A DNA stretch of 64,000 nt from Candidatus Bathyarchaeota archaeon (GCA_963811105.1 CAWEPZ010000011.1:992001-1056000); one strand, 5' to 3'; shown: positions 2,747 through 23,279, numbered from the stretch's first letter. Made by a program: numbers and translations. Notes: generated from the sequence alone by a model not told the origin.

Positions 2747-5326
2747 CTATGCTTTTTTCCGTATCGCCATCATTATTAAAGCGCCGATTATAATGACTAT
2801 TATTGCTATTGCGATAACGCCTGCAACTATTGTCAGTGTATAGTCCGGTACTGTTATTGCTGGTCCTGTTGAGGTTGTTGCTGTGGGTGTTGTTTCTGCG
2901 CCAACTGAAACAGCAGTTGCTGCTGATGAGCTGCCGTAGGAGTCGTCCCCTGCAAATGTGGCAATTATCCTGTATGTGCCTTCAGTAGGCGGCGTCCAAG
3001 GCATTTCAAAGGTGCCGTAGTATGCACTTGTAGTTACGGTGCCGATTGTGATGGCGTTGTTGTTAGAGTCTATAGCTGTGAGTACAATTGGCACACCAGT
3101 CATCGTAGCATTGTGGTCAACACCGTCGATTGGATGCTGCATATGCAGATATTCCATCTCAGTAGCCATCGAATCCTTAGAGACGCATGGTGTGTTAGGC
3201 TGAGCAGGAGACAAATCAAGCACTGTGCCCTTTATCAAAACGCCTGTTCCTCGCGCAACCACTGTATCGGGTGCTGTCACTGTTGTAGCGGTTTTTCCTC
3301 TGCCGAAGACATACATGTATCCGTCATAAGAGTTTCCTGCAGTCATGTAGCCATCCGCAGTCGCGCCTGGAGCCATGCTGCCAGTAATGTTCCATATGCC
3401 CTGGCCTGTGGTTATGTTGATCGCGTGTAGCTTGTAGCCTCTGTAAATAGGTTGGTTTGGACTGTGCTCAGTGTTATAGGTGTATAGGACTCCGTCTGCG
3501 ATGACAGAAGTTCCGGTAAACCATGCATAGGAATCAACACCTGTTGCATCATTTGCATACGGTTGTTCATACGGGTATTCTGGCACGTATTGATACAGCC
3601 AGGCTACTTTTCCGTTGGTCCAGTTGTAAGCAGCGACTCCATCGTATTGATTTGCAATTATCATTCCTCCGTAGGATTGTACACCGTAGCAGCCGAAGCT
3701 TCCCCATGGCCAACTTGTCAAATCGCTTACCCATAGCTGTTTTCCAGTGTGGAGGTCCCAGCAATACCAATGTCCATCATTTAAGCGCACAGCGAATTTG
3801 CCGTGATCTGCGACTGAGGTGCTTGCACTGAAGAAGCCCCCTTCCCCCGTCGTTGTATCGGTTGTGATGTTGAATAGTAGTTGTCCTGTCGTCATGCTTG
3901 CTGCCATTATGCCTTGACCATATGCCACAACAAAGCCTGAGCCAACTCCTCCTGTACCCGGAGTAGTTATCGCATATGTGTTAACAGCAATAGCTGATTC
4001 ATAGTCAACAGTGCCTAAACTGCTGAATGGCCATGTAACGTTGCCCAGAACTTGAGGCCGCAGGTTGGTAGCACCTCCGAATCCAACGTCTCCTGTTATA
4101 GTCCAGTTGATAAGTCTATATTGAGTGCCAATAGTCTGTACTGTAAAGAATACAGGCCAACCGTCGGGTGTTTGCGCGTAGAATGTGCCGCTCGTGAATG
4201 GAGAAATTGAGATGTTGGCGATTACTGTTCCAAGCCACGGGTCATACCATATCAGTCGACTACTTCCCACGTACATAAGTCTCACAGACAATCCTGAATC
4301 TTCGGCGCTAGCGCCCGCGACAGTCACAGAAGTCCTTGTAATATAATTAATCATTGTTGGCACCTGGGTGACATTTAATTGGTCCCAATAAACTTGCCCA
4401 GTTTGAAGGTCGTAGCATTCCCAAACAGATTGTGCGTGGCCGTCTATCATTTTAGTCATGGTTTGATAGCATCTTCCGTCATAAATTATCGATGGTGTTG
4501 CTCCCCTGCCCGACAAGGATGTCAGCCCCATTGTTCCACCAATTACACCAGCTATAGCGTCTTGCCGCATCCAAACTACGTGTGCAGTTTTAGGTCCTTG
4601 AACATAAGGAGTGAACAAATAGTTGCTCATGTAGGTGTTTGTGTCTGCTGGCCAGCTTGGGCCGCCTCCAACAATGCCTGTAGCAGGATAGTTGCCCAAT
4701 ATCGACCACCATTCCCTGTTTTCAGGTGACACCGGTCTTGTCCAGTAGTCCGTCGGAAGAGGTGAACCTGGCCAACTTTGAGCAAGCGTATTGGTTACAG
4801 TTATAGTATATGGTCCGTCACTGCTTGGTTTGTAGTATACTGAATTGGTAAAGGTCGTGTTGGTTCCAAACTGGAATGATGCTTCGGTCGTGTTGTAAAC
4901 TCCTGCAGGGAAGTAGGCACCGAGGAAGTCAAATTTGATTGTCCAATTGCCAAGCTGATCCGGTACGTAATTGAACCATGCTGATACATCTCCAGGATAG
5001 GAGTTCAGTGGACCGATAGTATCTTTGGTACCGTCTGGCTTTGTGAATGTCACTACGTAAGCATTTTTCATGTATCTGACGACGTGAACTGGAGGTTGAA
5101 GCCAAAGGTTAACAATTACATTTTGTCCAAGCCCAATGGCATGCGGGTTGAAACTCAAGTGAGCGATTGTCTGGAATGATTCATCTGGAGTAACGCCTGT
5201 TGGTAATGGTATTGATCCGTTATCCTGTAGTGGTAAGCTTTGAGCTTGAATAATAGATGGTGTTGTCAACGCAAATAAAGATATCAAGAAAATAGCAATT
5301 ATAGTTTTCTTTGCTTTTCCAAACAT
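2747..5326 (-). CDS. PQQ-like beta-propeller surface protein (paralogue 1), signal peptide plus C-terminal TM anchor
   Basis: Signal peptide, repeated D/N-x-x-TG-x-x-x-W motifs, conserved LPTDYWTRP and GTVLDLSPAQPNTPC blocks, and a C-terminal TM with basic tail. Confidence 0.8.
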   Translation of the reverse strand: MFGKAKKTIIAIFLISLFALTTPSIIQAQSLPLQDNGSIPLPTGVTPDESFQTIAHLSFNPHAIGLGQNVIVNLWLQPPVHVVRYMKNAYVVTFTKPDGTKDTIGPLNSYPGDVSAWFNYVPDQLGNWTIKFDFLGAYFPAGVYNTTEASFQFGTNTTFTNSVYYKPSSDGPYTITVTNTLAQSWPGSPLPTDYWTRPVSPENREWWSILGNYPATGIVGGGPSWPADTNTYMSNYLFTPYVQGPKTAHVVWMRQDAIAGVIGGTMGLTSLSGRGATPSIIYDGRCYQTMTKMIDGHAQSVWECYDLQTGQVYWDQLNVTQVPTMINYITRTSVTVAGASAEDSGLSVRLMYVGSSRLIWYDPWLGTVIANISISPFTSGTFYAQTPDGWPVFFTVQTIGTQYRLINWTITGDVGFGGATNLRPQVLGNVTWPFSSLGTVDYESAIAVNTYAITTPGTGGVGSGFVVAYGQGIMAASMTTGQLLFNITTDTTTGEGGFFSASTSVADHGKFAVRLNDGHWYCWDLHTGKQLWVSDLTSWPWGSFGCYGVQSYGGMIIANQYDGVAAYNWTNGKVAWLYQYVPEYPYEQPYANDATGVDSYAWFTGTSVIADGVLYTYNTEHSPNQPIYRGYKLHAINITTGQGIWNITGSMAPGATADGYMTAGNSYDGYMYVFGRGKTATTVTAPDTVVARGTGVLIKGTVLDLSPAQPNTPCVSKDSMATEMEYLHMQHPIDGVDHNATMTGVPIVLTAIDSNNNAITIGTVTTSAYYGTFEMPWTPPTEGTYRIIATFAGDDSYGSSSAATAVSVGAETTPTATTSTGPAITVPDYTLTIVAGVIAIAIIVIIIGALIMMAIRKKA

Positions 5327-5699: not shown

Positions 5700-6030
5700 C
5701 TAATCCATCATAAATAAATTACACACCATTCCATAAAGTTCCACCAAAAACATAATAATTAACAACACCCCGCAAAAGATAACCCCCCGAATATTGCAAA
5801 ATGAACAACATGGTACAAATGCAATAAGCGTGCCCCCTATTACTACTAACAATGGAGTAATCCCACGCCAAATTTACCGTCAAGCGCTAATACAGTCGAA
5901 AACTTAGTTACCGACGTTCAATTTGCGCTGCCGCTACCAGTAACCAAATATTTTACTTTTAAATTCCTACTATTTGCAGAATAAAACGAATAATAGAATT
6001 CAAAAATCCTCGGTAAGAAGGATGCTATAT

Positions 6031-8625
6031 ATGAATTTGAACAATTTTACCATTAAATCGCAGGAAGCCATTCAGAAAGCCACAGAAATTGCTATAGCAA
6101 AACAGAACCAATCAATTGAAACCTCACATTTGTTGAAAGGCATATTGATGGTGGACGAAAATGTGGTTCCCTATTTATTGAAGAAACTAAATGTAAACTT
6201 TGATGCTTTTTCAAAGGCGCTTGATAAGTTAATTGATTCCTTACCTAAGGTAGAGGGCGGACAACAATACCTCTCATCAAATTCAAATCGAGCCCTCCAG
6301 AAAGCGTCAGAAATAGCTTCAGAATTCAAAGATGAATTCATCTCCATCGAACATCTATTGCTATCAATCTTAACGGTAAAAGATGCAGCATCAAGACTAC
6401 TTGAGAACAACGGAGTCAACGAAAAAGATCTGCAGGCAGCAATCAAACAATTACGTAAAGGATCAACCGTTAATTCTCAAACTGCAGAAGAAACCTACAA
6501 TGCATTAAACAAATACGCATTCAACCTAAATGAATTGGCCAGAAAAGGAAAACTTGACCCAGTCATTGGACGCGACGAGGAAATCCGAAGAGTCCTTCAA
6601 ATCCTATCCCGAAGAACGAAAAACAATCCAATTCTAATCGGAGAGCCAGGCGTTGGCAAAACCGCAATCGCAGAAGGACTAGCTCACCGCATAATCGATG
6701 GAGACGTACCCGAGAACCTGAAATCAAAACAAGTTTATTCACTTGACATGAGTGCTCTTATCGCCGGTGCAAAATTCAAGGGCGAATTCGAAGAACGATT
6801 GAAAAGCGTAGTCAAAGAAGTTGTTTCAGCTGAAGGCGATATAGTCCTATTCATAGACGAGATTCATACTCTCGTCGGAGCTGGCGGCGGCGAAGGAGCA
6901 ATGGACGCAGCAAACATCCTAAAACCCGCACTAGCTAGAGGAGAATTACGTGCCATCGGCGCCACAACATTAAACGAATACCAGAAATATTTTGAAAAAG
7001 ACAAAGCCCTTGAAAGACGGTTCCAACCAGTCATGGTCAATGAACCAGACACACTGGACGCTATCTCTATTCTTCGAGGTCTAAAAGAACGTTACGAAAC
7101 ATATCACCATGTAAGAATCAAAGATGAAGCAATAATAGCCGCTGTGGAACTCTCACAAAGATACATTTCAGACCGATTTCTCCCAGATAAAGCAATAGAC
7201 TTGATTGATGAAGCCGCATCAAAACTTCGACTCGAAATCAATTCAGAACCTGAAGAGCTCGAAGTAAAAGACCGCCGAATCCGTCAACTAGAAATTGAAC
7301 GCGAAGCTATCAAACGTGAAAAAGATCAAGCGAAACTTAAGTCACTCAATGAAGAAATCGCGAACCTAAGCGAAGAACGCAATCAACTACGTGCCAAATG
7401 GCAATCTGAAAAAGACATAGTTGAACAAATTCAGAACAAAAAGAACGACATTGAACAACTAAAGTTTGAAGATGAGAAGGCAAACCGCAATGGCGATCTT
7501 GGACGCGTCGCAGAAATTCGCTACGGCAAAATTCCAGAAGCAGAAAAAATAATTGAAACTCTAAAGAAGAAACTCTCAGAGTTGCAGAAAGATTCAACCA
7601 TGGTAAATGAAGAAGTTGGCGCCGAAGAAATCGCTGAAATAGTTTCTCGCTGGACAGGTATCCCGGTTAGCAGAATGCTTCAAAGTGAACGGCAGAAACT
7701 GCTTAATTTAGAAACAGAACTTCACATGCGGGTTGTTGGACAAGATGAAGCAGTCAATGCAGTGGCAGATGCTATTAGAAGAAACCGCGCAGGGTTGCAG
7801 GATCCCAAACGACCAATCGGATCGTTCATCTTCTTGGGCACCACAGGGGTAGGAAAAACCGAATTAGCAAAAGCCTTAGCAGAATTCCTATTCAACAACG
7901 AAAACAGCATGATCAGAATAGACATGTCTGAATATCAAGAACGACACACTGTTTCAAGACTCATAGGCGCACCCCCCGGCTACGTAGGCTACGAAGAAAG
8001 CGGACAACTAACCGAAGCAGTCCGAAGAAAACCATACTCTGTCTTACTTCTTGACGAAATTGAAAAAGCCCACCCTGACGTTTTCAACATACTGCTCCAA
8101 GTACTCGACGACGGCAGACTAACAGACAACAAAGGCCGAACTGTAGATTTCAAAAACACCATAATCATAATGACCTCAAACATTGGCTCTCACATAATTC
8201 AAGAAAACCTAGAAAAAGTAAATGACCTAAACCGCGAAGAAATCATAAATCAAACACGAAAACAAGTCTTCGATTTACTCAAAAAAAGCATAAAACCAGA
8301 ATTCCTAAATCGCATCGACGAAATAATCATGTTCCAATCATTAACCCGAGAAGAAGTCCGAAGAATAGTAGAACTCCAACTAAAAAACATCCAGAAAATG
8401 CTAGAAAAAAGCTGCATCAAACTCACAATCACCAAAAAAGCCGTAGACTTCATTGCCATCATCGGATTTGACCCCCAGTTCGGAGCGAGACCAATAAAAC
8501 GCGTTATCCAGAAAAACTTGCTGAACGAATTATCAAAGATGATCCTAGAAGAAAAAGTCAACAAAAACTCGGAAATTATTGTCGATGAGAAAAACGGCAA
8601 GCTGGTGTTCAAAAACAAATTATAG
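6031..8625 (+). CDS. clpB: ATP-dependent chaperone ClpB
   Basis: Two AAA+ modules (GEPGVGKT; GTTGVGKT), [20 protein letters not shown] and GAPPGYVGY motifs, and a coiled-coil M domain. Likely ATG start at 6031 ([13 protein letters not shown]). Confidence 0.97.
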
Positions 8626-8861: not shown

Positions 8862-10361
8862 ATGACCGCCAACAAAATTCTAGGAAAAACTTTAATAATT
8901 TATCAGTTTAAGACATTCAAGGTGGTTTCTTTTTCAGTGCGTAAAATGAGCAAAAAACAACCTAATCAACTTAATCCACTTGCATTTAAAAAACACCCCT
9001 CTGAGCAATTGGACCACCAAAAAATTGCCCAATTAATACTTTCTCCGTTCATCCACTTGTTCAACATTAATGAATCGACGAAGTGTCTTTTCAATTCTTT
9101 AACTCTAAAGAAAGTGTACTTAACCAATGATAATTACACTAAGCTTTTAATAGATCTAAGTATGGGAAAACGTAGTAGAGACGTCAAAAGTTTAATCGAC
9201 TTGAAGTTTATAGTGCCTCTAGGCTTTGATGCGGAAAAAGTGTTTGACAGCGTCGCAAACAGCTTGCTTAGAAAGAAACCTTCGACCAACCTTGCGTACA
9301 TTTTGGTAACTGACTTCTGCAACTTCAGATGCGGTTACTGCTTCATAGAAAACTCTCTAAAGGGTCCTAGCATAGCAATGTCCAAGGATTTGGCAGATAA
9401 AGTCATTAACGTTTTGATCAACGAAGCAAAGCAAGTCCCAGAATATAGAGTTACATTTTATGGAGGAGAACCCCTAAGCATCAGCGAAATAGTCTTCTAC
9501 ATCATCAAAAAACTTGAGCAAGCATCTAAGGACAAATTCAAATTTTCTTGCGTTACAAACGGAAGTCTAGTAACCGAAGATTTAGCTAGAAAACTTAAAC
9601 AACACAACGTTACCGTAGGATTATCGCTAGACGGATGGGCCAACATTGACAAAAACCGTGTTTTTACCAATGGAAAAGAAACCTTTTACTCAGCACTTAA
9701 AGCGTTAGCTCTCCTAAAAGAAGCCGAGGTAAATGTTGGAATATCATGCACAATTACAAAACAGAACTACAAATACGCAGAGGAAATAGTTGAATTTATC
9801 CAAAAATTGGGAATCAGAACCATTGGTTTTAATTTGTTAACTAGACTCCAAGAGCCAAGTGAATTTGAGGTGCCAGACCCAAAACAACTCGCGCACCACC
9901 TCTTTGAAGCGTACTTAAAAGCAAACGAATTGCAAATGTTTGAAGATCGCATAGGCAATAGACGAGCAAACTATTTTTTCAAAGAAATATTTCATTTGTA
10001 CGATTGCCCCGCGTTTGGTCAACTAATATTCTTTTCGCCAGCTGGAACAGTGGGACCTTGCCATGCGTTCTATCCTTCAGGAAAACATCAAATTCCAATC
10101 AAAGATAATCTGAAAGTCCAAGAAGAACCATTGTTTTACAAATGGCTGGAAATTGGCACACTAAAGAATAAAGATTGCATGAGGTGTCCGGCCCTTGGAA
10201 TCTGCGGCGGAGGCTGCGCTTACGATATTTACGTTAAGACCGGTCAGCTTGGCATTAAAGAAGACTACTTCTGCGCTTTCCAGAATGAAATACTCAAGCT
10301 CCTGCTATCTTACAATTTCCTGATAAAACCTCAAAATAAACTTGGAAAAACGAAAAGTTGA
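8862..10361 (+). CDS. Radical SAM/SPASM domain protein, probable peptide maturase
   Basis: CNFRCGYC (CxxxCxxC), FYGGEP, TNG and SLDG motifs, plus SPASM cysteines (CPA...GPC; CMRCPALGICGGGC...FC). An N-terminal extension of more than 100 aa could be an RRE-like domain. The start may be the ATG at 8946. Confidence 0.9.
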   Translation: MTANKILGKTLIIYQFKTFKVVSFSVRKMSKKQPNQLNPLAFKKHPSEQLDHQKIAQLILSPFIHLFNINESTKCLFNSLTLKKVYLTNDNYTKLLIDLSMGKRSRDVKSLIDLKFIVPLGFDAEKVFDSVANSLLRKKPSTNLAYILVTDFCNFRCGYCFIENSLKGPSIAMSKDLADKVINVLINEAKQVPEYRVTFYGGEPLSISEIVFYIIKKLEQASKDKFKFSCVTNGSLVTEDLARKLKQHNVTVGLSLDGWANIDKNRVFTNGKETFYSALKALALLKEAEVNVGISCTITKQNYKYAEEIVEFIQKLGIRTIGFNLLTRLQEPSEFEVPDPKQLAHHLFEAYLKANELQMFEDRIGNRRANYFFKEIFHLYDCPAFGQLIFFSPAGTVGPCHAFYPSGKHQIPIKDNLKVQEEPLFYKWLEIGTLKNKDCMRCPALGICGGGCAYDIYVKTGQLGIKEDYFCAFQNEILKLLLSYNFLIKPQNKLGKTKS

Positions 10362-10508
10362 AAGATTCACCCGTCTAAACACCAAAAAGCCCATAAAAAG
10401 CCCTTAGCCAAAAGAATCTAAGCAAACAATTGCTAATCAACAATTCAATAAATGAAAAAAAGATACAGACACATCTGACAGTTAACTTCACCCCAGATTG
10501 CCTGTACA

Positions 10509-10555
10509 ATAAATATAAATAATTGACACTTCATACAACAATGTAGTGATTATTT
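10509..10555 (+). promoter_or_regulatory. Putative archaeal promoter/5' leader of the precursor gene, duplicated upstream of the 13099 gene
   Basis: TATA-like aatataaata about 35-45 bp upstream of the TTG. The block 'ataaata...acttcata...gattatttttgtcaaaa' recurs at about 13055-13107. Confidence 0.5.
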
Positions 10556-11014
10556 TTGTCAAAAAATAAATCAAATCCTATAGCGCCCTCCAAAAACCCA
10601 TCTATCGCTCTATCAACAAAAAAATTGACCACAGCACAAAGCAAACGTTTACCAACAATCTTGGCACAAATACCACCTATCGAAAAACTGAATCCGGCCA
10701 TGTATGCAAAGCTGCAGTCAACTATACATGATACCGTAGCAAAAGCTTTGCCGGAATATCAGCAATGGATAAGCAAAACTATTGCATCGGATGGCCAGAC
10801 TCCGACTCCAGTGTGTAGCTCATGCGGAAACGACTGCCCAACACCACTTTGCAGTTCATGTGGAAACGATTGCCCCACACCTCTATGTAGCTCATGCGGA
10901 AACGACTGCCCAACACCATCAGCAACTAGAAAAATTGAAGACATGGTCAATGTGGCTGTCAACCAGGCAATGACCACGGCAATTCGTCAAGCTTTGGAAC
11001 AACAATTCAAATAA
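10556..11014 (+). CDS. Putative multi-core RiPP precursor (leader, 3x CSSCGNDCPTP, follower)
   Basis: All 9 Cys lie in three tandem 12-aa repeats, flanked by an 86-aa Cys-free leader and a ~30-aa helical follower. The gene sits between two radical SAM genes. Confidence 0.75.
   Translation: MSKNKSNPIAPSKNPSIALSTKKLTTAQSKRLPTILAQIPPIEKLNPAMYAKLQSTIHDTVAKALPEYQQWISKTIASDGQTPTPVCSSCGNDCPTPLCSSCGNDCPTPLCSSCGNDCPTPSATRKIEDMVNVAVNQAMTTAIRQALEQQFK
10814..10921 (+). repeat. Three tandem 36-bp units encoding CSSCGNDCPTP(L/S)
   Basis: Units at 10814-10849, 10850-10885 and 10886-10921. Unit 2 differs from unit 1 at 7 positions, all synonymous third positions. Confidence 0.95.
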
Positions 11015-11124
11015 GAAGCTGTTTTCCAATTGAGAAACGTAAACGCTCAAATGAAGAACAAGCAACAAAAATAGTCTACTGATTTGCACGATAAAAATCA
11101 GCAGCTATTCCAAAAAACAACATC

Positions 11125-11163
11125 AGGTAAGACCAGTTAGGCTGGTCTATTACCTCAGTTTTT
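11125..11163 (+). terminator. Hairpin plus T-tract downstream of the precursor gene
   Basis: aggtaa-gaccag [ttagg] ctggtc-ta-ttacct forms a 12-bp stem with a 2-nt bulge, followed by cagttttt. Confidence 0.5.
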
Positions 11164-11328
11164 ATAAAATTAAAAAACGCTTCTCGTTAAATCTAACATA
11201 AAACTTTGGTTGTCCAATCGTTTAATATAGACACTATGATCCATGTTTCGTAATAATAAAGAACTTTAAATCATCCATGAGTGGCTTATTAGGAAGTCTT
11301 CCAAAAAAATATCTTAAAAGGGTTACAA

Positions 11329-12918
11329 ATGCCTGTATTTCTTTGCATCCCTCCAGTTTCTTCGTTGGTTCCTTATCCAGCAATTCCATACTTAACAAGT
11401 AGCCTGAAAGCAAATAATCAAAAGGTAAGTACCTTTGATCTAAACATAAACGCTTTTAATTTAACTCTTTTCCACCAAGGCGTTGATATTAAACCCGGGG
11501 AAATTTTACGTAAGAATAATCATGGAATAAAGGCGAAATGCGCAAGAGTTCCTGAGGCAAATCTTTACTCGACCATGCGAGAAAGCAAAGAAATTTTTGA
11601 ACAAATTATGTTCGAAGAGGCTTCTGATCAATTAAGTTATCCCTATTCGAGTCTACAGTCCAGATATATTATTAGCAAAGAATTAAAGCAGGCAATAATT
11701 TCGGATGTTTGGAAAATTTGTAATAATTGGTTTTTGGAAGTTGCCAATGATTCCAAAGAACAAAGTATTGTAGGATTTCATGTAATAAGTCAAACTGGAT
11801 TGATGTGGAGCATACTTCTTGCACGAAAATTAAAGAAAATTCTGCCCAAAATTTTGACAGTCTTGGGGGGTCCAGCATTCCTCGCATGGGAAGAAGTTCT
11901 CTCAGCCAATCCAGAAATTGACGTAATAGTTCGAGGGGAGGGTGAGGTCACAATTTCTGAGATAGCTAATTTGTATGACGGCAGTTTGGAATCAATAAAA
12001 GGAATCAAGGGAATTTATTACAGAAACGAGAAAGATAAAATTGAAACCAATGCGGATCGCCCATTAATAAAATCTCTTGACGCTTTGCCTTTTCCATATT
12101 ATGGTGATTTACCGTTAAAAGAATATCCTCAGAATAAGTTTGGAATGCCTATAATACCCGTTGTTGGTTCTAGAGGATGTATAGGAAATTGTGTTTTTTG
12201 CGTTGAAAAACGTTTATGGGGTAACACTTATCGGATGCGCTCACCAGAAAACATCGTTTCCGAGTTCAAAAACATTAAAGAAAAATATGGAACTTCTGTT
12301 ATTCGCTTCAATGACAGTTTGATAAATTGTAATATCAAATCTCTAGAAACATTCTGCAATTTATTGATTGAAGATAACATCAGAATGCAATGGATGGGTA
12401 ATGCTCGAATCCGACCTGAAATGACTGATAAATTGCTTGGGAAAATGGGCCAAGCAGGTTGCATAGGATTATGGTATGGCATAGAATCTGGGTCTCAAAG
12501 AATATTGCATAAAATGAAAAAAGGATATAATTTGGAAACCGCTAAAAATGTAATCCACGATACTGCTAGAAACGGCATTCGAGTTCTAATATTTATGATA
12601 GTAGATTTTCCAGGAGAAACACCAAACGATTTTAGACAGTCCGTTGATTTCTTAAAGCAGAATCAAGATTACATTGATCAAGTCAGCATTTCACGCTTTG
12701 GCGTCTTGCATGATTCAGAAATAGCTCTCAGCCCAAAAAAATATGGAATTGAAGTTATTAGAAGAAAAATGGGCGTTAATTACAGTTACATCTATTCACC
12801 TAGACCAGAGAGCAATCGATATGAAATCTTAGATTCAGCCTGGAAGCAATTAAGTATGCTAAAAAAAGCAAACCCAGCTAGAAATAATCGCGCAAAAATA
12901 ATCGTCCCATATTACTAA
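11329..12918 (+). CDS. Cobalamin (B12)-binding radical SAM protein (class B methyltransferase-like)
   Basis: B12-binding domain motifs (VLGGP, RGEGE), SRGCIGNCVFC (CxxxCxxC), RSPENIV.E, GIESGS and FPGET. Confidence 0.9.
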   Translation: MPVFLCIPPVSSLVPYPAIPYLTSSLKANNQKVSTFDLNINAFNLTLFHQGVDIKPGEILRKNNHGIKAKCARVPEANLYSTMRESKEIFEQIMFEEASDQLSYPYSSLQSRYIISKELKQAIISDVWKICNNWFLEVANDSKEQSIVGFHVISQTGLMWSILLARKLKKILPKILTVLGGPAFLAWEEVLSANPEIDVIVRGEGEVTISEIANLYDGSLESIKGIKGIYYRNEKDKIETNADRPLIKSLDALPFPYYGDLPLKEYPQNKFGMPIIPVVGSRGCIGNCVFCVEKRLWGNTYRMRSPENIVSEFKNIKEKYGTSVIRFNDSLINCNIKSLETFCNLLIEDNIRMQWMGNARIRPEMTDKLLGKMGQAGCIGLWYGIESGSQRILHKMKKGYNLETAKNVIHDTARNGIRVLIFMIVDFPGETPNDFRQSVDFLKQNQDYIDQVSISRFGVLHDSEIALSPKKYGIEVIRRKMGVNYSYIYSPRPESNRYEILDSAWKQLSMLKKANPARNNRAKIIVPYY

Positions 12919-13098
12919 ACGAAGTTTCTTGTAAAGAGAATTTCTCCTTTTGCTTTTTTGTCGCTAAAGATGGTGATAGTTAAGGCAAAACGTACAGGAG
13001 ATTTCTGTTAACCACGTTTTTCAAGAGTCTATTAACAATTTTGCAAATCCTCATAAACATAAATAGCGGTACTTCATAAAAATAGAGTGCGATTATTT

Positions 13099-13434
13099 TT
13101 GTCAAAAGATAAATCCGTAAACAAAGCCCTCTCTAAAAAGTCTACAAGAACTGTTCCTAAGAAAAAATCAGATTCAGCTGGTTCAAAAAAAAGATTAACC
13201 AAGAAACAAAATGAACGCCCACATACACTTTTTGAAAAAAATCAACATTTTGAAAAATTGGATCCCGAATCTTATGCGAAACTGCAATCAACAATACATG
13301 AAGTCGTTGAAAAAACGATGCCCGAATACAAAGAATGGCTAAATTCTGCATTTGGCGAAAAAATTATTCCCGATGATTGTTCCAATGCCCGCCCAACACT
13401 TATCCAAAGGTGCCGCGTCTGTCCAAAAAATTGA
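13099..13434 (+). CDS. Paralogue of the RiPP precursor leader, probably the N-terminal part of a frameshifted fusion with the downstream methyltransferase
   Basis: EKLDPESYAKLQSTIHEVVEKTMPEYKEW aligns with EKLNPAMYAKLQSTIHDTVAKALPEYQQW of the 10556 protein. The TTG at 13099 has the same context as the TTG at 10556. Confidence 0.7.
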   Translation: MSKDKSVNKALSKKSTRTVPKKKSDSAGSKKRLTKKQNERPHTLFEKNQHFEKLDPESYAKLQSTIHEVVEKTMPEYKEWLNSAFGEKIIPDDCSNARPTLIQRCRVCPKN

Positions 13435-14272
13435 CGATATTGTAGTTGCTGCTTTCAACAAAGCTATGAAAGCAGTACGTCAAGCTTCGGAAGAAACTGA
13501 GCAAACGGAAATTATGGAAAAATGGTTCAAAAAAAAATTTTTTGACGACGTTTCTGACATACGACCTGAAAGCAGAAACTATTACAAACATTGCGTACAC
13601 AATTTCGTTACTCAATTTTTCTCCAAAGAAAAAATAGCTGGAAAAAGAATCCTCGACTTCGGATGTGGACCAGGATACTATTCCACGATTTTGGCCCAAC
13701 GCGGAGCAGACGTAACTGGAATTGACAGAAGTGCATTTCTTATTTACAAAGCAAACGAACTCAAACAAAAACTAGGACTTAAGAATATAGAGTTTTTTCA
13801 AGAAGATTTTCTTGATTTTGAGACAAATGCAAGGCCCAAAGAGTTTGATTATATCATAGCGATAGACACAATTGTGAGTTTTGACTTTTCCAGACAGAAG
13901 CATAACCATGAGGATTTCACTAAGGCATTGAGCAAAATCAGCAGAATTCTGAAAGATCAAGGTAGATTTTTTATAATTGAGGCGCATCCTTTTTTCGGTC
14001 AATTTGCTAAAGGAATAAAATTCTCAAGCGAAGGACATTTTCATGGTCGTTTATCTCATTATAAAATAGAATATAAGCGTAAAGATAATCCTAATCATTG
14101 GTTTACCCTTGACGAAATGACGAAGGCTCTTAATGAGAACTGTTTGGCAATTTGCAGGATTTATGAGCCTGATCCAAGTGTTGAATTGGAAAAAGAAAAC
14201 GCCCAATTATTCAAGTTTTTCCTGAAGTATCCACACATGATTGTATATGAAATATGCAAAGTGAGAAACTAA
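13352..14272 (+). CDS. Class I SAM-dependent methyltransferase carrying the precursor-like follower at its N-terminus
   Basis: Motif I ILDFGCGPGY, VTGID, FDYI and LKDQGRF. The N-terminal KIDDIVVAAFNKAMKAVRQASE matches the precursor follower KIEDMVNVAVNQAMTTAIRQALE. Confidence 0.85.
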   Translation: MAKKLFPMIVPMPAQHLSKGAASVQKIDDIVVAAFNKAMKAVRQASEETEQTEIMEKWFKKKFFDDVSDIRPESRNYYKHCVHNFVTQFFSKEKIAGKRILDFGCGPGYYSTILAQRGADVTGIDRSAFLIYKANELKQKLGLKNIEFFQEDFLDFETNARPKEFDYIIAIDTIVSFDFSRQKHNHEDFTKALSKISRILKDQGRFFIIEAHPFFGQFAKGIKFSSEGHFHGRLSHYKIEYKRKDNPNHWFTLDEMTKALNENCLAICRIYEPDPSVELEKENAQLFKFFLKYPHMIVYEICKVRN

Positions 14273-14535: not shown

Positions 14536-15484
14536 TTAGACTATTTTATCAGCCGCCATTTTCATTTTTTCCAAAATGAATCTCACTTTTTCGAGTGATG
14601 TCATTCCAAAGCCGCAATCCGGATGGATATACCTGATATTTTCTCTTCCGGCAGATTTCCTCAATTCTGTTATATCGCTCCATAATTATTCTCTCATCTT
14701 CAACATTGACGTTTGAGATGAACCCTACTCCAAGTTTCTTACCGTGCTCTTCCAGTGATGTCTTTGAGATGATATCCAAATTCTCTTTTTCTTCTTCTCC
14801 GCTAAATCCTAAACTTAAGATTGGAATATCAGAATCTAATAAGACATCATATAGATTCGGAACACTTTTTATTGATCCACAGACGTGACAGCTAACTTTT
14901 TCCTCTTTAATCGAAAAAGGTGGAAGATGCAAAGTAAAATCTTCCAAGATCTTTTTAGCAGACTCAAGAGAAACTCGCCCAGTTGAAAGCAAAGGTTCGT
15001 CAATCTGCACGTAAGCTCCAATATTAAGCGCTTCCTGCACTAGAGGTAAAAGGGCACGAGAAAAATCAGAAAACAAAGATTCTTCTTCGTCTAAATTATA
15101 ATGCTTCATTGTACTTTCCATATCCGCTAAAGCACAAGTAGTACCTAACGTCATTGGACCTGTAATTGTAATTTTGACTTTCACACTCTCTTTTCCTAGG
15201 CTTTCCAGGATTGATTTGACTCTTCTATAATCGTTAATCTTGTAGAACTCATCTATCTTGTCTCGTTTTATGGGTTCAATTTTTCCCACAATCTTCAAGC
15301 CATCGTCGAGTCTTTCTAGACCTGGAATTTGCTCAAAGTACTGAATCATGTTTCTTCGCAGTTCACCATCAGTTATCAGATCGATGCCGTAGTATAATTG
15401 CAAATCAACGATTTCTCTAATCGCATTTTCAAGAGGACGATCTGATTTAGGAAAACTTCCGACAACAGTTGTTTCTATTGGCAT
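14536..15484 (-). CDS. MetE C-terminal-domain ('core') methionine synthase-like protein, frameshifted near the 3' end
   Basis: TTVVGSFP, ITDGELRR, ITGPMTL, VQIDEP and Zn-ligand HVC motifs. Shifting frame near 14650 restores AGRENIRYIHPDCGFG...KMAADKIV* ending at 14536. Confidence 0.8.
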
Positions 15485-16055
15485 GAAAATAGTTAAATAA
15501 ACATAAATATTTAAACCGCTTGTGAGCAACTGTTCAGAACTGCTTCAACGTACAGTTTCAAGCTAAATTACACCTTTTGCTCCGTAAGTAGCTCCTGAAC
15601 TTGGCGCTCAATTTGGCATCTGATTTCTCGAACTTGTCTATGGGTTTCCTTTTGGGTCTTCAAGCTTCCATTCGATTGTTGGCCTGAAGAGCATTTTTGA
15701 CCCTCAATTCAAAACCGGCTGCCTAATTGATTATTGCTATCTGAACCTTTTTGACACATGATTGAATTTGTCGCTGACTTCAAAAAACCGGAAATAAAGA
15801 AAAGATCGGGCTTTGTTTTCGATAGATATTGGAAAGTAAGGAACGGGTGTTTGCAAGATTAGAAAAACACATAGCACATCTATCCTAAGATTTCGTTGGC
15901 ACTTATTGATTCCGTTGTCAAAGGCAAAATTATGCAAAGGTAGAAAGAAAGTTGCAGCTATCTATTTCTTAAAGAATACTTGAAAACCTAAGCCTTTTGC
16001 TAAAATTATCTTTGAACAAGAAAAAGAGGGAGATGTAATTTTATTGTTTGGGTGG

Positions 16056-18698
16056 TTATCGTTTTCTGAGTATCAGAATGGCTGTTGCGACTGAGAGGAT
16101 AACTACGATTATTATTGCGATTACTCCGGCGACTATGGTCATTGTGTAGTCTGGTGTTACGGATTGTGAAGCTGCTTGAGAAGGTGCCAATGTTGCTGCT
16201 GGACTAACTGCTATTGCTGTTGCTGCTCCTGAACTGCCATATGAGTCGTCTCCTGCAAATGAGGCAACAATTTTGTATGTGCCTTCTGTTGGTGGGGTCC
16301 AAGCCATCTCAAATGTGCCGTAGTATGCGCTTGAAGTTACTGTTCCGATGTTGATGACTTTGCCAGATGAGTCTATAGCTGTTAGTGTTACTGGTATGCC
16401 AGTCATGGTAACGTTGTGGTACATTCCATCTATTGGAATTTGCATGTGTAGGTATTCCATTTGAGTCGACATTGAGTCTGCGGAAACGCATGGCGTACCT
16501 GGTTGGGCTGGTGATTGATCCATAACTGTTCCTCGTATTAGCACTTGGGTTCCCAATGGTGTAGCGGTGTCGGGTGCCGTCACTGTGGTTTGTGTTAAGC
16601 CTTTGCCAAAGACGTCTAGGTAGCCGTCGTATTCATCGAGGAATGCGAGGTAGCCGTCTGATATTGCGCCTTCGAAGTAGCGTGAGCCTGGTACTCCTTG
16701 ACCCATGGTTATATTCCATATGCCTGCGCCTGTGGTAGCGTTAATGCAGAAGAGTCTCCAGCCTCTTGTAATTGGCTCGCTTGGCGTATGTTCACAGTTG
16801 AAGGTGAAGAGTTTTCCATCAGCCACGTAGCCTGAGCTGTGCCAGGAATAGTTTCCGCCATATGGTGTTTCAAATGGAGGTGCGGGTGCTGTGAAGGTCC
16901 AATCGATCTTGCCTGTGATCCAGTTGATCGCGTGGACTCCTGCGTAGTCATTGTCGAATATGTATCCGTAAGCTGATTGCACATCGTAAGCTCCGAAGAC
17001 TCCCCATGGCCATTCTGACAGCGGGCTCGTCCAAACCAGGTTCCCAGTCTTTAAGTCCCAGCAATCCCAGTCGCCGCCTAACAAGCGGACAGCTGCTTTG
17101 CCGTGATCGACAACCATTGGGGTTCCAAAGGTTTGTCCCCAGCCTGAACTAGTGTCTGTGGTTTTGTTCCAGAGGAGTTGTCCAGTGTATATGTTTGCTG
17201 CTTGTATGAATATGCCAACGTTTACTCCTAAGCCGGCTGAACTGATTGCGCCTGTGGTGACAGCGATTCCTGATTCATAATCAACTGTTCCCAGACTGCT
17301 AAATGGCCAAGAAATGTTGCCCCATATTCTTGCGGTGAAATTGTCAACAACTGTTTGCGCGCCTCCGCCGTGAACTTGCTCAGAGCCTGCGTTATTTGCT
17401 ATGGTCCAGTTGATTAAACGGTAGGTGACAGATGATCCTGAGCCGATTGTTTGTATGCTCAAGACCCATGGGTCTGCGTAGAATGTGCCGGTAGATACTC
17501 CGGAGGGGACTCCTGTGAAGTTTGAAACAACTGTGCCAGTTAAGGGGTCGTACTTGATTACTCGACCTGAATTTGAGCCTGACGCTCCAGTTATCGCTAC
17601 AAAGTATACTGATTCGCCTACTCTTGCTTCTGCGCCTGGAACTTCTGCGCCGCCTCGCTCATAGGTGATTATGGTGGGTATTGTTTCTCCAGTGGCTACT
17701 GGGCGTTCCCAGTATATCTTGCCTGTTTGCAGATCATAGCATCTCCATTCGTTGACTGCGCTAACTGTAGTAGGGTATTGCCATGTGCCGTTGATGTATA
17801 CTGGTTGTGTGGGTTCGCTTATGACTTCATAGCATCTTCCTGAGTAGATGATGGTTGGGTATCCACTTCCCGTTAATCCTCCGGCTGTCCAAGAGAGTTG
17901 TCCTGCTGGTCCACCGATGAGTCCGGCGATGAATGTTGGTCTTTGCCAGACTATGTGTGCTGTGTTTGGTGCTTGGACGTAGGGTGTGAATCTGTAGTTG
18001 CTCATGTATTTGTTGGTGTTTGCTGGCCAGTAGGTGCTTCCTCCAACAACGCCTGTTGGAGGCCAATTGCCTAATATTGGCCACCATTCTCTGTTGAAGG
18101 ATTCAGCTGGTCGTGACCAGTAATCTGTTGGTAATGCTGCTGGAGGCCAAGATGCTACCGCGTTTTGTTGCACTGTTACTGATACTTGAGGTGTTGTTGC
18201 TGGTTTGTAGTAGGCTGAGTCTAGAAATGCAGAACCGGATGTTCCGTTTTCGACGACACTTCCTTGGAGGTAGTATCCTGCGGGGTAGTATTGACCTAGG
18301 AAGTTAAATTGGAATTTGTAGGTACCGGCTGTGTCTGGGGTGTAGGGGAACCATGCTGTTGAGTCGCCTGCGTAGGATGATATTGGGCCTACAGTGGTGG
18401 TTGTTCCATCTGGTTTAGTGATTGTGACTGTGAATGCGTTTACTAAGTCTCTGTTTATGTTGATTGGAGGTTGAAGCCAGATGTTTACAAGTAACTCTTG
18501 CCCAACTCCGATTGGGTTTGGAGTGACATCAAGATAAGCAGTAGGAGTCACAGTAATGCTTGCAGTTACTCCGGCTGGTAAAGGTCCTGCTACTGGTTGG
18601 CTTAATGCTTTTACTGTCATTTTTGTCGTGGTTGCTATTACAGAAGCCATCAAAATGATTATGATAATTGCAGTTATCTTTTCACGATTTATTTTCAT
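16056..18698 (-). CDS. PQQ-like beta-propeller surface protein (paralogue 2)
   Basis: Same architecture and conserved blocks as 2747-5326 (LPTDYWSRP, NREWW, GTVMDQSPAQPGTPC, MEYLHMQ, C-terminal TM). Confidence 0.8.
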   Translation of the reverse strand: MKINREKITAIIIIILMASVIATTTKMTVKALSQPVAGPLPAGVTASITVTPTAYLDVTPNPIGVGQELLVNIWLQPPININRDLVNAFTVTITKPDGTTTTVGPISSYAGDSTAWFPYTPDTAGTYKFQFNFLGQYYPAGYYLQGSVVENGTSGSAFLDSAYYKPATTPQVSVTVQQNAVASWPPAALPTDYWSRPAESFNREWWPILGNWPPTGVVGGSTYWPANTNKYMSNYRFTPYVQAPNTAHIVWQRPTFIAGLIGGPAGQLSWTAGGLTGSGYPTIIYSGRCYEVISEPTQPVYINGTWQYPTTVSAVNEWRCYDLQTGKIYWERPVATGETIPTIITYERGGAEVPGAEARVGESVYFVAITGASGSNSGRVIKYDPLTGTVVSNFTGVPSGVSTGTFYADPWVLSIQTIGSGSSVTYRLINWTIANNAGSEQVHGGGAQTVVDNFTARIWGNISWPFSSLGTVDYESGIAVTTGAISSAGLGVNVGIFIQAANIYTGQLLWNKTTDTSSGWGQTFGTPMVVDHGKAAVRLLGGDWDCWDLKTGNLVWTSPLSEWPWGVFGAYDVQSAYGYIFDNDYAGVHAINWITGKIDWTFTAPAPPFETPYGGNYSWHSSGYVADGKLFTFNCEHTPSEPITRGWRLFCINATTGAGIWNITMGQGVPGSRYFEGAISDGYLAFLDEYDGYLDVFGKGLTQTTVTAPDTATPLGTQVLIRGTVMDQSPAQPGTPCVSADSMSTQMEYLHMQIPIDGMYHNVTMTGIPVTLTAIDSSGKVINIGTVTSSAYYGTFEMAWTPPTEGTYKIVASFAGDDSYGSSGAATAIAVSPAATLAPSQAASQSVTPDYTMTIVAGVIAIIIVVILSVATAILILRKR

Positions 18699-18934
18699 TT
18701 TTTCTTTGCTCCTTAATTCTTTGCAGAGCTAACAAAATGCTCTGCAAAAATTAGTTATCTACTCTGAGCGCTTTTAAGGTTTTAGATAACGCTTTTATAA
18801 AGACAAGATGCTCGAGTTAAAATGCGCTTACATAAACATGAGAAGTCTCGTTCGGAGATAGCCACTCTGGTATGTCACGGTACACAATTTTCCTTAACAA
18901 AGAAAAAGGATTAAGGAGCTTTATTGCTCTGCCT

Positions 18935-19669
18935 TCACTGGATAGAGTCTCTTTGATTAAGCAGTTTTTGAATTTGCTGCAATATATCTTCAGACGAAGA
19001 AGCCTTGAAATGTGCAGGTTCGCGAACTCCCGGTCCGACTTTGGCGTACTTTGCTCCGATTTGTGTCATTCTCTGCGTTAGGCGTAGCTCGGGATATACT
19101 TCGTCTATTACTGACAGCAAGACGGCTTGCTCGGAAGATATGATCTGCCCACCTTCGAAAAACTGAGCAGGCTCGATTGCCGACCATATCATCTCTATCG
19201 TTTTCGCTGAAAGAGCCCCTTGCAACGGTTGATCAATTAGACTTGCAGCTTGATGCGCGGGTTCAATCCATTCATTTGAGAGTTTTAGTTTGAGCGCACT
19301 TAACCACAGCAGATAAATATTGAAAGTTCCTGCAACAACTGTAATCAGTTTCTCTTCATTGATGCCTTTGAGGACTGGCATGAGTTCACTCTCAAACACG
19401 GTACCTTTAAGGTTTTCAGCACCCAAGCTAACTGATTTGACCATTCCGCCATCTACTTCGATTTTGCAAGGCAAGGTGGAGGCAACAACAAAGCCAATTT
19501 GTTTGGATGCACGGTCAAAGGCTGCGTCTATCTTTGTCTGGTATTTCTCTTTAATCAACTGGTAAATCGCAAGCAGGTCTTCTCTGTATTTGATAATCTT
19601 CGGATGCGCGGGTTCCACCCAAGGTCTCTGCTTTCTCAGCATTGTTTCATCTATTCTTTTTTCATCCAA
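18935..19669 (-). CDS. Hypothetical protein with four EPA(H/Q) motifs; candidate substrate of the adjacent B12 radical SAM
   Basis: PWVEPAHP, EWIEPAHQ, AIEPAQFF and GVREPAHF. Starts 13 bp after the rSAM stop, with a ggggtg RBS-like sequence. Confidence 0.7.
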   Translation of the reverse strand: MDEKRIDETMLRKQRPWVEPAHPKIIKYREDLLAIYQLIKEKYQTKIDAAFDRASKQIGFVVASTLPCKIEVDGGMVKSVSLGAENLKGTVFESELMPVLKGINEEKLITVVAGTFNIYLLWLSALKLKLSNEWIEPAHQAASLIDQPLQGALSAKTIEMIWSAIEPAQFFEGGQIISSEQAVLLSVIDEVYPELRLTQRMTQIGAKYAKVGPGVREPAHFKASSSEDILQQIQKLLNQRDSIQ

Positions 19670-19682
19670 TTTTTCACCCCCT

Positions 19683-21428: not shown

Positions 21429-21757
21429 CTTATCCCCCCAATCAAAGTGTCTAAAGTGCAAGGGACAAATGACAGTTCCTCGAGAACAAAGATTGCGTTA
21501 TAAGAATTTTCCGCCGGGTTATTTGTAGATCTCGCGATATTCGACTTTCTGCACATCAACAGGTCTCTCCACAGATAGTAAACATTAGAAATTTCGCCAA
21601 ATCAAAAACCTCACATAAATGAGTGACCGCAAATTGCTTTTCCATATTATCTCTTATTTCATTAGTCATTTGATTAAGGCGTCTCCGAAAATCATCTTTG
21701 CCTCATCGCGTATTTAATAATATGTTGTTGCATTTGCACTGCAACTAACTTCAGTTC

Positions 21758-22367: not shown

Positions 22368-23279
22368 GTGCCTTCCCAACAAAAATTGGCGATGACGCTG
22401 TTTTTTGGAAAAAGTCCTGCCTGCCGGTTAGAAAAAATTTATAAATATTTTGCCATAAATAGGGAGCGGTTGGCTGATAATTTGGGGAAGGTTACACGAA
22501 CTGTTTCACCCTCAATATTCTTTTTGCTCACATTCATTCTTTCATGGTCTATTTGGATTTCCTTGATTCTTGCTTCTTCCCAGATTTCTGAGGGCTTAAG
22601 CAATATTGTGAGGCTATTTGGCGTTTTGATGCCTGCTATATCTGCTATCATTCTTACAGCTTACTGCGCTGGTCGGTCTGGAATTGGGCATTTATTTTCT
22701 CGGTTGAAGATTTGGAAAGTTGGAGCTAAATGGTGGATAGCTGTCATTTTTGTCTATCCCGTTTTGCTTGTTATAGCTGGTTTGCTTTACAACTTGTCTA
22801 ATCCACCGTCAATGGTAAACCTTCTCCCTATAACCGCCGGCAGTCTCATAGCAAACGGCATTTTCCTTACAATAGCTGCGTTAGGAGAAGAAATCGGTTG
22901 GCGTGGTGTCGCTTTGCCTGCACTGATGAAAAAGCTCTCGCCTCTCATGTCAAGTTTGGTGTTGGGTCTTTTGTGGGCGGCATGGCACTTGCCGTTTTGG
23001 CTTCTTATCGGCACTCTTAGTCAATACGGATGGGCGTATTTCGTGATGAATTTCTTGTTCATTGTTCCAACTACATTCTTCATTACTTGGTTTTTCAATA
23101 ATACCAAGGGAAGTATTCTTCTTCCAGTTATTTTTCACGTTGTTTTTAATGTAGTAAATGTTGCAATCTATCCTGTCACAGGATCAGCTGAGGCTTTCGG
23201 AATCTTTATAATACTTCAGTTTGCAATTATGTTTGCAATTATTCCCTCCCTTAGAAAATCCAAAGCCTCTGACGTTTGA
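22368..23279 (+). CDS. CPBP (CAAX/Abi) family intramembrane glutamic metalloprotease
   Basis: LGEEIGWRG (EExxxR), WAAWH and FHVVFN motifs with multiple TM helices. The true start is probably further downstream (e.g. TTG at 22482). Confidence 0.9.
   Translation: MPSQQKLAMTLFFGKSPACRLEKIYKYFAINRERLADNLGKVTRTVSPSIFFLLTFILSWSIWISLILASSQISEGLSNIVRLFGVLMPAISAIILTAYCAGRSGIGHLFSRLKIWKVGAKWWIAVIFVYPVLLVIAGLLYNLSNPPSMVNLLPITAGSLIANGIFLTIAALGEEIGWRGVALPALMKKLSPLMSSLVLGLLWAAWHLPFWLLIGTLSQYGWAYFVMNFLFIVPTTFFITWFFNNTKGSILLPVIFHVVFNVVNVAIYPVTGSAEAFGIFIILQFAIMFAIIPSLRKSKASDV

Follow-up and report, generated by a model that had tools for sequence, protein, structure and literature searches.

We analyzed a 64,000-nucleotide stretch of DNA, referred to here as the window, from Candidatus Bathyarchaeota archaeon (GCA_963811105.1, CAWEPZ010000011.1:992001-1056000), in which a group of genes at 8862-14272 appears to encode the enzymatic modification of a cysteine-repeat protein. 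The genome consists of 3.49 Mb in 15 contigs and is 96.65% complete. Five plus-strand open reading frames (ORFs) were found where an initial annotation, made from the sequence alone, had placed them: 499 residues at 8862-10361, 152 at 10556-11014, 529 at 11329-12918, 115 at 13087-13434, and 306 at 13352-14272, the last overlapping the fourth in the +1 frame. They lie between clpB (5974-8625) and a metE-like gene (14549-15529, minus strand), and both the ORF positions and the domain matches agree with the annotated series of co-oriented genes for a radical S-adenosylmethionine (SAM)/SPASM enzyme, a Cys-repeat protein, a B12-binding radical SAM enzyme, and a methyltransferase. The description of this region as an A/T-rich block holds in direction but the effect is weak, the GC content being slightly under that of the flanks (bins of 0.33-0.42 versus 0.37-0.45 in clpB and 0.37-0.38 in the metE-like gene). 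The coding features are as follows.

8946..10361, plus strand: radical SAM/SPASM maturase, 471 residues from the probable ATG at 8946; the ORF is open from 8862 (499 residues)
10556..11014, plus strand: precursor/scaffold protein, 152 residues, with a Lys-rich disordered N-terminus, leader 26-78, core 79-122, and follower 123-150
10790..10921, plus strand: core with three CSSCGNDCPTP units, from Tandem Repeats Finder and translation
10922..11005, plus strand: follower helix KIEDMVNVAVNQAMTTAIRQALEQ, with predicted docking on the N-terminal domain of the SPASM enzyme
11329..12918, plus strand: B12-binding radical SAM enzyme, 529 residues (PF02310 and PF04055)
13099..13434, plus strand: leader-like ORF, 111 residues from TTG 13099, a precursor paralogue with the Lys-rich N-terminus and the leader motif followed by a non-conserved tail
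13373..14272, plus strand: ORF for a class I SAM methyltransferase, open in frame 2 from 13343 onward and containing TTG 13352 and ATG 13373, with a follower-like N-terminus KIDDIVVAAFNKAMKAVRQASEE
13373..13434, plus strand: two-frame overlap with a +1 frameshift, whose likeliest site, judged by in-frame relatives, is near 13402-13409

The first gene encodes an enzyme whose N-terminal peptide-binding-like domain has about 115 residues; CNFRCGYC forms its radical SAM motif, and its SPASM domain holds seven cysteines. The ATG at 8946 is the likely start, since its relatives begin at residue 29 of the ORF. The enzyme matched PF04055 at 3e-21; no Pfam SPASM model was among its Pfam matches, and its C-terminus scored 46.4 bits against TIGR04085 (cut-off 27) over profile positions 1-93 of 93, which bears out the annotated SPASM domain. 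Among 90 homologues, the cysteines of the CX3CX2C motif (C125, C129, C132) and those of the SPASM domain (C354, C372, C411, C414, C420, C424, C443) are invariant.

The best-scoring NCBIfam family, over nearly the whole enzyme (ORF residues 61-478 to profile positions 2-446), was FibroRumin (TIGR04136; 9.6e-53), yet the enzyme is not a member, with 179.6 bits against a cut-off of 400. To our knowledge, FibroRumin is an uncharacterized family that takes its name from bacterial genera. PapB (NF047865) was second (1.1e-43, 149.8 bits versus a cut-off of 340), and the next matches were CefB, a nif11-type maturase, and QhpD (TIGR03906; 4.1e-31, 108 bits versus 453), then the anaerobic sulfatase maturase at 1.1e-30 (TIGR03942; 106.9 bits, short of the cut-off of 349). 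The best solved structure was that of CteB (5wgg, 3.4e-22), followed by 8vpo and then a sulfatase maturase. The enzyme thus groups with peptide maturases, as the initial annotation had suggested, and because it falls below the cut-off of every named family it represents a new one. An anaerobic sulfatase maturase or cofactor enzyme was considered and rejected on account of these lower scores and of the lack of sulfatase or dehydrogenase genes nearby; no sulfatase gene was present among the cluster neighbours examined. In a large protein database, the close family (at least 70% identity) comprises some fifty clusters from environmental assemblies, and the next relatives are 37-47% identical, some of them fused to a GNAT acetyltransferase domain. 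The GNAT-fused relatives P0075, P0077, P0080, P0083, and P0114 (36-47% identical, 560-594 residues) carry that domain at the C-terminus and could belong to a sister system with acetylation in place of methylation.

The putative substrate is the 152-residue protein, for which, as for the leader-like ORF, no Pfam or NCBIfam family match was found; it had no usable match in the ESM Atlas, and no signal peptide is visible in its sequence. An AlphaFold2 model, based on 29 family members, has helices at residues 26-38, 42-45, 47-78, and 123-150, a disordered Lys-rich N-terminus, and a core (79-122) that is disordered between the helices, with a pLDDT value (the predicted score of the local distance difference test) of about 40. 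The initial annotation described three identical Cys-rich cores; CSSCGNDCPTP does occur three times in the protein, but as contiguous 12-residue units with no spacers, and in the register C-P-x-x-L-C-S-S-C-G-N-D there are two full units and one partial unit. Tandem Repeats Finder placed the repeat at 10817-10918 with a period of 36 nt, 2.8 copies, and 81% DNA matches. The first two DNA copies have seven differences, all of them synonymous at third positions, and the peptide units are identical. Because the DNA repeat is only 81% identical and all differences are synonymous, the peptide repeat is held by selection.

The consensus of 63 units from 29 proteins, each with one to four units, is C-P-[TV]-[EPQ]-[LIV]-C-S-[SA]-C-x-N-[DQE]. 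The three cysteines of the unit are invariant, Asn occupies position 11 and D, Q, or E position 12 in 60 of the 63 units each, and the core has no aromatic residues. Ratios of nonsynonymous to synonymous substitution rates (dN/dS) were obtained by comparing the window with a locus from a different species, L032 (dS 0.4-1.3). Within the precursor they were 0.06 for the core (dS 1.31), 0.15 for the leader, and 0.70 for the follower; the SPASM enzyme gave 0.13, the B12 enzyme 0.23, the methyltransferase 0.13, and the leader-motif part of the leader-like ORF 0.24. Purifying selection on the repeat core is thus very strong, and no other region is as constrained.

A pattern-and-tblastn scan with one genome per species identified 26 related loci in 18 metagenome-assembled genomes (MAGs). 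Seventeen of these MAGs are labelled Candidatus Bathyarchaeota, which fits the origin in Bathyarchaeia that had been proposed from the sequence, and one 10.4-kb contig (L051) is labelled Candidatus Sulfotelmatobacter. The SPASM gene lies directly upstream of the precursor gene in 22 of the 26 loci (L053 is a remnant), so the expected synteny is conserved; 20 of these 22 also have the methyltransferase and 18 the B12 enzyme, and in some loci a further precursor copy sits between the B12 gene and the methyltransferase gene. Leader homologues without a radical SAM neighbour, which could have spoken against the assignment, were found in L039, L040, L043, and L054, and in each case the MAG has a full cluster on another contig. 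When all flanking ORFs of the 26 loci were clustered, no other flanking family occurred in more than five loci.

The family has a narrow distribution. The precursor profile matched 22 of 120 genomes of the genus to which the window belongs and, in a class-wide sample, 4 of 401 genomes, all from that genus and none among 360 genomes from 130 other genera; in 24 genomes representing other families of the order, matches were marginal at most. Among 1.84 billion representatives, 18 proteins matched at E up to 0.001, and all are scaffold variants or methyltransferase fusions. A family this narrow and patchy is therefore best described as an accessory trait.

We predicted the complex of the SPASM enzyme (90-sequence alignment) with precursor residues 36-152 (29-sequence alignment). 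The complex score was 0.68 (0.73, 0.68, and 0.61 in the individual runs), and the best of three controls scored 0.00. Of 80 solved complexes, 58 reached the mark used, as did 2 of 110 mismatched pairs, a calibration that is only rough with self-built alignments. The contacts agreed from run to run at a level of at least 28%, and the pLDDT of the partner was at least 46. Confident contacts joined precursor residues 128-151, that is, the follower helix, to enzyme residues 28-33, 52-53, 87-107, and 346-351, and the domain formed by these enzyme residues immediately precedes the radical SAM core. The predicted model supports recognition of the C-terminal follower helix, and not of the N-terminal leader, by the N-terminal domain of the SPASM enzyme. 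In the solved CteB arrangement it is the leader of the peptide that contacts the enzyme, whereas the contact predicted here is made by a C-terminal helix.

The domain pair that the initial annotation assigned to the third gene was found in the expected order, with the B12 domain (PF02310; 34.8 bits, cut-off 32.1) preceding the radical SAM domain (PF04055; 60.7 bits, 2.6e-16). The enzyme matched ApyD (NF050148; 1.2e-46, 159.4 bits versus a cut-off of 750) and the C-methyltransferase family TIGR03975 of peptides that are ribosomally made and modified after translation (RiPPs) (4.5e-43, 147.6 bits, short of the cut-off of 281.85). A match to HpnJ (2e-43), also below its cut-off, was about equal to those of the peptide families. 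Judged from its sequence, the B12 enzyme is a probable C-methyltransferase. Locus L055 shares the synteny of the window, its clpB and metE-like genes being 93-96% identical, and is without the B12 gene; the enzyme therefore appears to provide an optional tailoring step.

The class I methyltransferase matched PF13847 (1.2e-23, 83.9 bits, cut-off 27). Its nearest named families in NCBIfam are generic small-molecule methylases, and its relatives in the database are nearly all from the same cluster family. In relatives the methyltransferase is a single protein of 367-402 residues; in the 13 that were aligned it is one ORF of 367-391 residues, and its SAM loop, DFGCGPGY, is kept (F188 and C190 in at least 90% of them, the other six residues being invariant). 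The annotated fusion of precursor and methyltransferase thus describes the relatives, but the window has two overlapping ORFs split by a +1 frameshift: frame 1 carries the leader-like part to the TGA at 13432-13434, and frame 2 the follower helix and the methyltransferase. Over about their first 116 residues, the fused forms share homology with the precursor scaffold, the core columns being skipped (hhalign 99.9%, E 2.4e-34), and this scaffold copy takes in the Lys-rich N-terminus together with the leader motif and the follower helix. A core remnant, for example NDCSNGS, is left in the fused proteins, and its cysteine is not kept among the 13 relatives. As the core columns are absent and the cysteine of the remnant is not conserved, the fused methyltransferase is unlikely to be its own substrate. 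We infer that the scaffold copy serves as a built-in docking module for the methyltransferase, and the follower-binding domain of the SPASM enzyme, as seen in the predicted complex, would be the sole supported candidate surface for it.

The initial reading of the region as a RiPP-type peptide-modification cluster is supported by these results. We consider it rather probable that the genes form a self-contained RiPP-type maturation cluster that modifies a Cys-repeat scaffold protein and is so far confined to one Bathyarchaeota genus. In such a pathway, the 152-residue protein would present a disordered core of 12-residue units between helical N- and C-terminal regions, and the N-terminal domain of the SPASM enzyme would dock on the follower helix, so that the adjacent core may thread into the active site. 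In SPASM thioether synthases such as CteB, PapB, and QhpD, the auxiliary clusters coordinate the thiol and accept an electron. The SPASM enzyme here would similarly abstract a hydrogen from a side-chain carbon and join that carbon to a cysteine sulfur, each repeat becoming a small thioether ring. The likeliest link would be from Cys9 to the D, Q, or E at position 12, and further links may form inside C-P-x-x-L. Where present, the B12 enzyme would methylate unactivated carbons, and the class I enzyme would add a methyl group to a heteroatom or an activated carbon, its scaffold copy bringing it to the partner surface of the substrate. The product may remain an intracellular modified protein of about 15 kDa or may be trimmed by unlinked enzymes. 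The repeats look like multiple cross-link motifs of one product and not like separately released cores.

A system with a related logic was reported from Methanococcus voltae (CrpA, CrpB, and CrpC; Dieter et al. 2026, PMC13692751), with the first radical-SAM-installed thioethers in an archaeal protein dated to 2026. According to the part of that report available to us, modifications of -2 Da in CrpA were mapped to CAVD, PCAGD, and CPLVL, of which CAVD and PCAGD had lost one thiol; the C-x-x-D/Q/E motif was called suggestive of radical SAM thioether formation; and CrpB, which shares its first 47 residues with its substrate CrpA, raises the extent of modification (PMC13692751). As far as the Crp system is described there, both systems are archaeal, both combine a SPASM enzyme with a Cys-repeat protein larger than the usual RiPP precursor, the repeats of both contain C-x-x-D/Q, and neither has a linked protease or exporter. 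In both, a second protein shares the N-terminal region of the substrate, namely CrpB there and the methyltransferase N-terminus here, so that the cluster described here has the functional features of Crp, C-x-x-D/Q/E repeats served by a SPASM enzyme and a second protein with a terminal region of the substrate. For the scaffold copy on the methyltransferase, CrpB is the nearest precedent. The pair of Cys9 and position 12 is the best supported link because it has the same C-x-x-D/Q spacing as CAVD and PCAGD in the available account of CrpA, and the C-P-x-x-L stretch resembles the modified CPLVL of that protein.

The two systems differ in several respects. CrpC belongs to TIGR04463, whose cut-off of 525 is not reached by the enzyme here (90 bits), and the precursor families are unrelated, no Crp protein being among the 18 profile matches. 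Here the shared module is fused to a methyltransferase and its parts include a C-terminal follower helix, the cluster also has a B12-binding radical SAM enzyme, and the repeats are of 12 residues in one to four copies, compared with 17 residues in ten copies as given for CrpA in the part of the report at hand. The cluster is therefore a second archaeal precursor and enzyme family with Crp-like logic that is unrelated to Crp.

Several other systems share single aspects with this one. The ranthipeptide maturases PapB and CteB have the same order of N-terminal peptide-binding domain, radical SAM core, and two-cluster SPASM domain and act on Cys-rich substrates, that of PapB having repeated Cys-x3-Asp units. 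They differ in that the precursor here is about three times longer and has a follower helix, in that a C-terminal helix and not an N-terminal leader strand is predicted to be recognized, and in the scores below the PapB cut-off given above. QhpD is a SPASM enzyme that makes Cys-to-Asp/Glu side-chain thioethers in a small protein, QhpC. The enzyme here is far below the QhpD cut-off, and no dehydrogenase subunits, protease, or ABC exporter were present among the cluster neighbours examined. The B12 enzyme has the order of B12-binding and radical SAM domains of the PoyB/C type (TIGR03975) and ApyD and, like them, is encoded in a peptide-modification cluster, but it is below both cut-offs, and a non-peptide enzyme, HpnJ, has a similar score. 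Borosins also combine a precursor with its own methyltransferase in one polypeptide; they have a different fold, and the core at their C-terminus is the substrate of the attached enzyme. Here the precursor-derived part is an N-terminal scaffold joined to a class I Rossmann methyltransferase, and the fused proteins lack the core columns.

A number of observations weigh against the pathway as outlined. Our data show the gene set, its maintenance as a unit, the selection on the core, likeness at the level of families, the homology between scaffold and methyltransferase N-terminus, and a predicted interface of enzyme and follower; the thioether, its acceptor residues, the methylation sites, the docking by the scaffold copy, and what becomes of the product and what it does are what we infer, the chemistry by analogy. 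With the SPASM enzyme below the cut-offs of all named maturases, its reaction cannot be read from family membership. The complex model gives the conserved N-terminal leader no partner, and the fold of the precursor is uncertain in the leader region, with pLDDT below 50 in one run. Since solved maturase-peptide complexes exist, part of the pass in the complex prediction may reflect likeness to them. A PqqD or RRE domain was not found, with no Pfam match at E up to 10 in SPASM enzyme residues 1-115; the FibroRumin profile does align from ORF residue 61, and the predicted complex has the follower helix on this domain. The leader motif is also kept in L051, L043, and L054, loci without the methyltransferase and the B12 enzyme, and so it cannot serve these two enzymes alone. 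The model of the fused methyltransferase has a mean pLDDT of 46.9 and lends no structural support to a docking module, and in the window the gene is frameshifted. Finally, two features set the cluster apart from typical secreted antimicrobial RiPPs: conservation within the precursor is highest in the core, and no protease, transporter or exporter, or immunity gene is conserved among the flanking ORFs of the 26 loci. The constraint on the core suits a conserved role in the cell better than that of an arms-race antibiotic, and the product may stay a modified protein, as no protease or exporter is conserved.

The same substrate and enzymes could be engaged in another chemistry, such as C-C cross-linking, epimerization, or cysteine oxidation, with methyl groups possibly on sulfur. 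This we regard as unlikely, although the SPASM enzyme reaches the cut-off of no thioether-forming family, SPASM enzymes vary in their chemistry, and cyclophane-forming and other SPASM maturases also match it at 1e-25 to 1e-30. Cyclophane chemistry would need aromatic residues, which the core does not have, and the best-scoring families as well as the best solved structure are those of thioether formers. In addition, the three invariant cysteines of each unit together with C-x-N-D/Q/E fit known thioether motifs, as described in the accessible part of the Crp report (PMC13692751).

The frameshift raises a different alternative, that the pathway is decaying in this genome, with the methyltransferase a pseudogene through a real frameshift and only the SPASM enzyme and the precursor still at work. 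In-frame relatives read ...DDCSN-[D/N]-C-x-T-x-I-K-[G/D]-G-x-S-x-x-K-I-D... across the junction; those that span it are full-length proteins of about 390 residues (78-83% identical) and P0141, which has 338 residues, is 88% identical, and is without the first 50 or so residues. Because these close relatives read through the junction in frame, the window appears to have one extra base near 13402-13409. L032 also has a net +1 in the linker and is collinear with the window there, and L055 is garbled at this place and too noisy to use, its ClpB being in three pieces. A homopolymer error in the A6 run at 13424-13429 was considered and rejected; the in-frame relatives shift the site to about 13402-13409, and contig X9 (13405-13549) is gapless over the run. 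Shared descent of the frameshift with L032 was not supported, since the methyltransferase-domain tree groups P0141 and P0175, both in frame, in one clade with the window and L032, with the reservation that P0175 was untrimmed in that tree and its placement is uncertain. Four sequencing runs contained no indel at 13300-13450, with thin cover and no piece bridging the site, and are no evidence either way. The frameshift may be either a recent real mutation or an assembly error.

Decay of the pathway is in our view improbable. It would agree with the +1 frameshift in the linker, with L032 being out of frame there as well, and with the existence of clusters without the B12 gene (L038, L055) and of visibly fragmented ones (L049, L056). 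Against it, both halves are open and under purifying selection relative to L032, as the ratios given above for the methyltransferase and the leader motif indicate; ATG 13373 could start a methyltransferase that retains the follower helix; P0141, the closest linker-spanning relative, is in frame; and several related MAG assemblies have many split genes, which suggests assembly indels.

The C-x2-C-x3-C-P arrangement resembles part of a ferredoxin cluster motif. That the Cys-repeat protein is an unmodified metal or iron-sulfur binder, such as a metallochaperone or a ferredoxin-like protein, and a partner of the radical SAM enzymes instead of their substrate is very improbable: this likeness, the high conservation of the core, the absence of export and cleavage genes, and the metal-related role that the Crp authors, in the available part of their report, suspect for their protein (PMC13692751) would agree with it, but the core is predicted to be disordered, no ferredoxin or metal-binding family was matched in Pfam or NCBIfam, a variation from one to four repeats between copies is odd for a defined cluster site, and the gene is strictly linked to that of a peptide-maturase-type SPASM enzyme with predicted binding to the precursor. 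Metal binding after modification would be compatible with maturation of the Cys-repeat protein as we propose it.

Three non-coding elements accompany the genes.

10508..10523, plus strand: TATA-like A/T-rich box, 33-48 nt upstream of the precursor start
11125..11155, plus strand: RNA hairpin with a T5 run behind it, 110 nt downstream of the precursor stop
13052..13066, plus strand: TATA-like box ahead of the leader-like ORF, a paralogue of 10508-10523 at the same distance

The upstream regions and 5' ends of the precursor gene and the leader-like ORF align (ATAAAyATAAATA ... GATTATTTTTGTCAAAAnATAAATC), and by their sequence the two TATA-like boxes would be promoters. The hairpin has a predicted energy of -16 kcal/mol (z -4.1, with 0 of 200 shuffles as stable). 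It is kept in L036 with a compensatory change of GGTA/TACC to GGCA/TGCC, is absent from loci with short spacers, and may be a terminator or a transcript-stabilizing element. A scan for bacterial-type promoters and terminators gave 20 sites versus 17.2 expected; its consensus is bacterial and uninformative for an archaeon.

The same genome has further copies of the system, in the pattern seen with the orphan precursors of other MAGs. On contig C10, a second precursor with four CPVEICSSCGND-type units is encoded at 53253-53723 (minus strand), and a second SPASM paralogue at 18438-19838 (plus strand), 68% identical and intact, lies 34 kb away with no adjoining precursor; the two look like an unlinked 'type 2' pair. 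The type 2 precursors, found also in L043, L051, and L054, have an extra Lys/Glu-rich C-terminal tail, and their loci are without methyltransferase and B12 genes. L051 is the only locus with a label other than Bathyarchaeota; its SPASM gene is 75% identical to that of the window and its precursor is a typical type 2 precursor. The contig is probably mis-binned and is not evidence of transfer to Acidobacteriota. ORF fragments sharing '...LVASANV[RM]FR[LV][PL]K[AG]...' occur near toxin-antitoxin genes in both type 2 loci (C10 20018-20242 and 20963-21235; L004 12881-13174) and are probably a repeated DNA element. On contig C2, at about 103000-129000, five tblastn matches to the B12 enzyme (31-35%) and two to the SPASM enzyme (24-25%) are spread over about 26 kb and may mark a larger gene cluster of radical SAM enzymes, separate from this one.

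Other genes in the surroundings deserve mention. Three paralogues of 859-880 residues with a weak PQQ-like beta-propeller match are encoded in the window at 2747-5326 (minus strand), 16056-18698 (minus strand), and 24879-27497 (plus strand), the second of which ends in a membrane anchor. Further paralogues lie by the second SPASM gene (C10 16377-18353, minus strand) and by an orphan precursor (L004 9190-9768, plus strand; the precursor at 9733-10230, minus strand). Relatives are present in five related loci; this is a multi-copy family, and the co-occurrence could be due to chance. A second B12-binding radical SAM protein (19683-21461, minus strand; 592 residues, 26% identical to that of the cluster) is encoded 5 kb downstream, adjoined by an unannotated 244-residue ORF, and a homologue of the 592-residue protein is similarly placed in the syntenic L055. 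An Rce1-like (CPBP) intramembrane protease is encoded 8 kb downstream (22368-23279, plus strand) and is not among the families that recur across the loci; CPBP proteases are sometimes tied to peptide processing or immunity.

Characterized RiPP-type products from archaea are very few, and the Bathyarchaeota are abundant and uncultured, the host of this cluster coming from soil and peat. In the literature on RiPPs of Bathyarchaeia or Bathyarchaeota, we found no specific description of such a cluster, although the supplementary cluster set of the Crp study could include the family. A survey of archaeal RiPPs mentions ranthipeptide clusters in TACK archaea, in its accessible part in general terms only (PMC12144867), and the available part of a peatland survey does not mention Bathyarchaeia (PMC13642348).

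With three enzymes and one substrate, the system is compact enough to test how SPASM enzymes recognize protein-sized substrates, whether a follower can take the place of a leader, and what role the fused scaffold copy has. As a tentative and rather doubtful extension, the cluster might represent a new class of archaeal modified proteins, with a follower-reading maturase and a methyltransferase recruited by 'substrate-scaffold mimicry'. If so, the fusion of scaffold and methyltransferase would be a natural counterpart of engineered leader-fused enzymes; we know of no such enzymes so far except those built by engineering. The split form in the window would then consist of a leader-like protein and a follower-tagged methyltransferase working as separate polypeptides. 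Since the core is extremely conserved and export genes are absent, a cellular role, be it in metal handling, redox processes, or structure, is favoured over that of an antibiotic, and such a role would broaden the known uses of RiPP-like chemistry.

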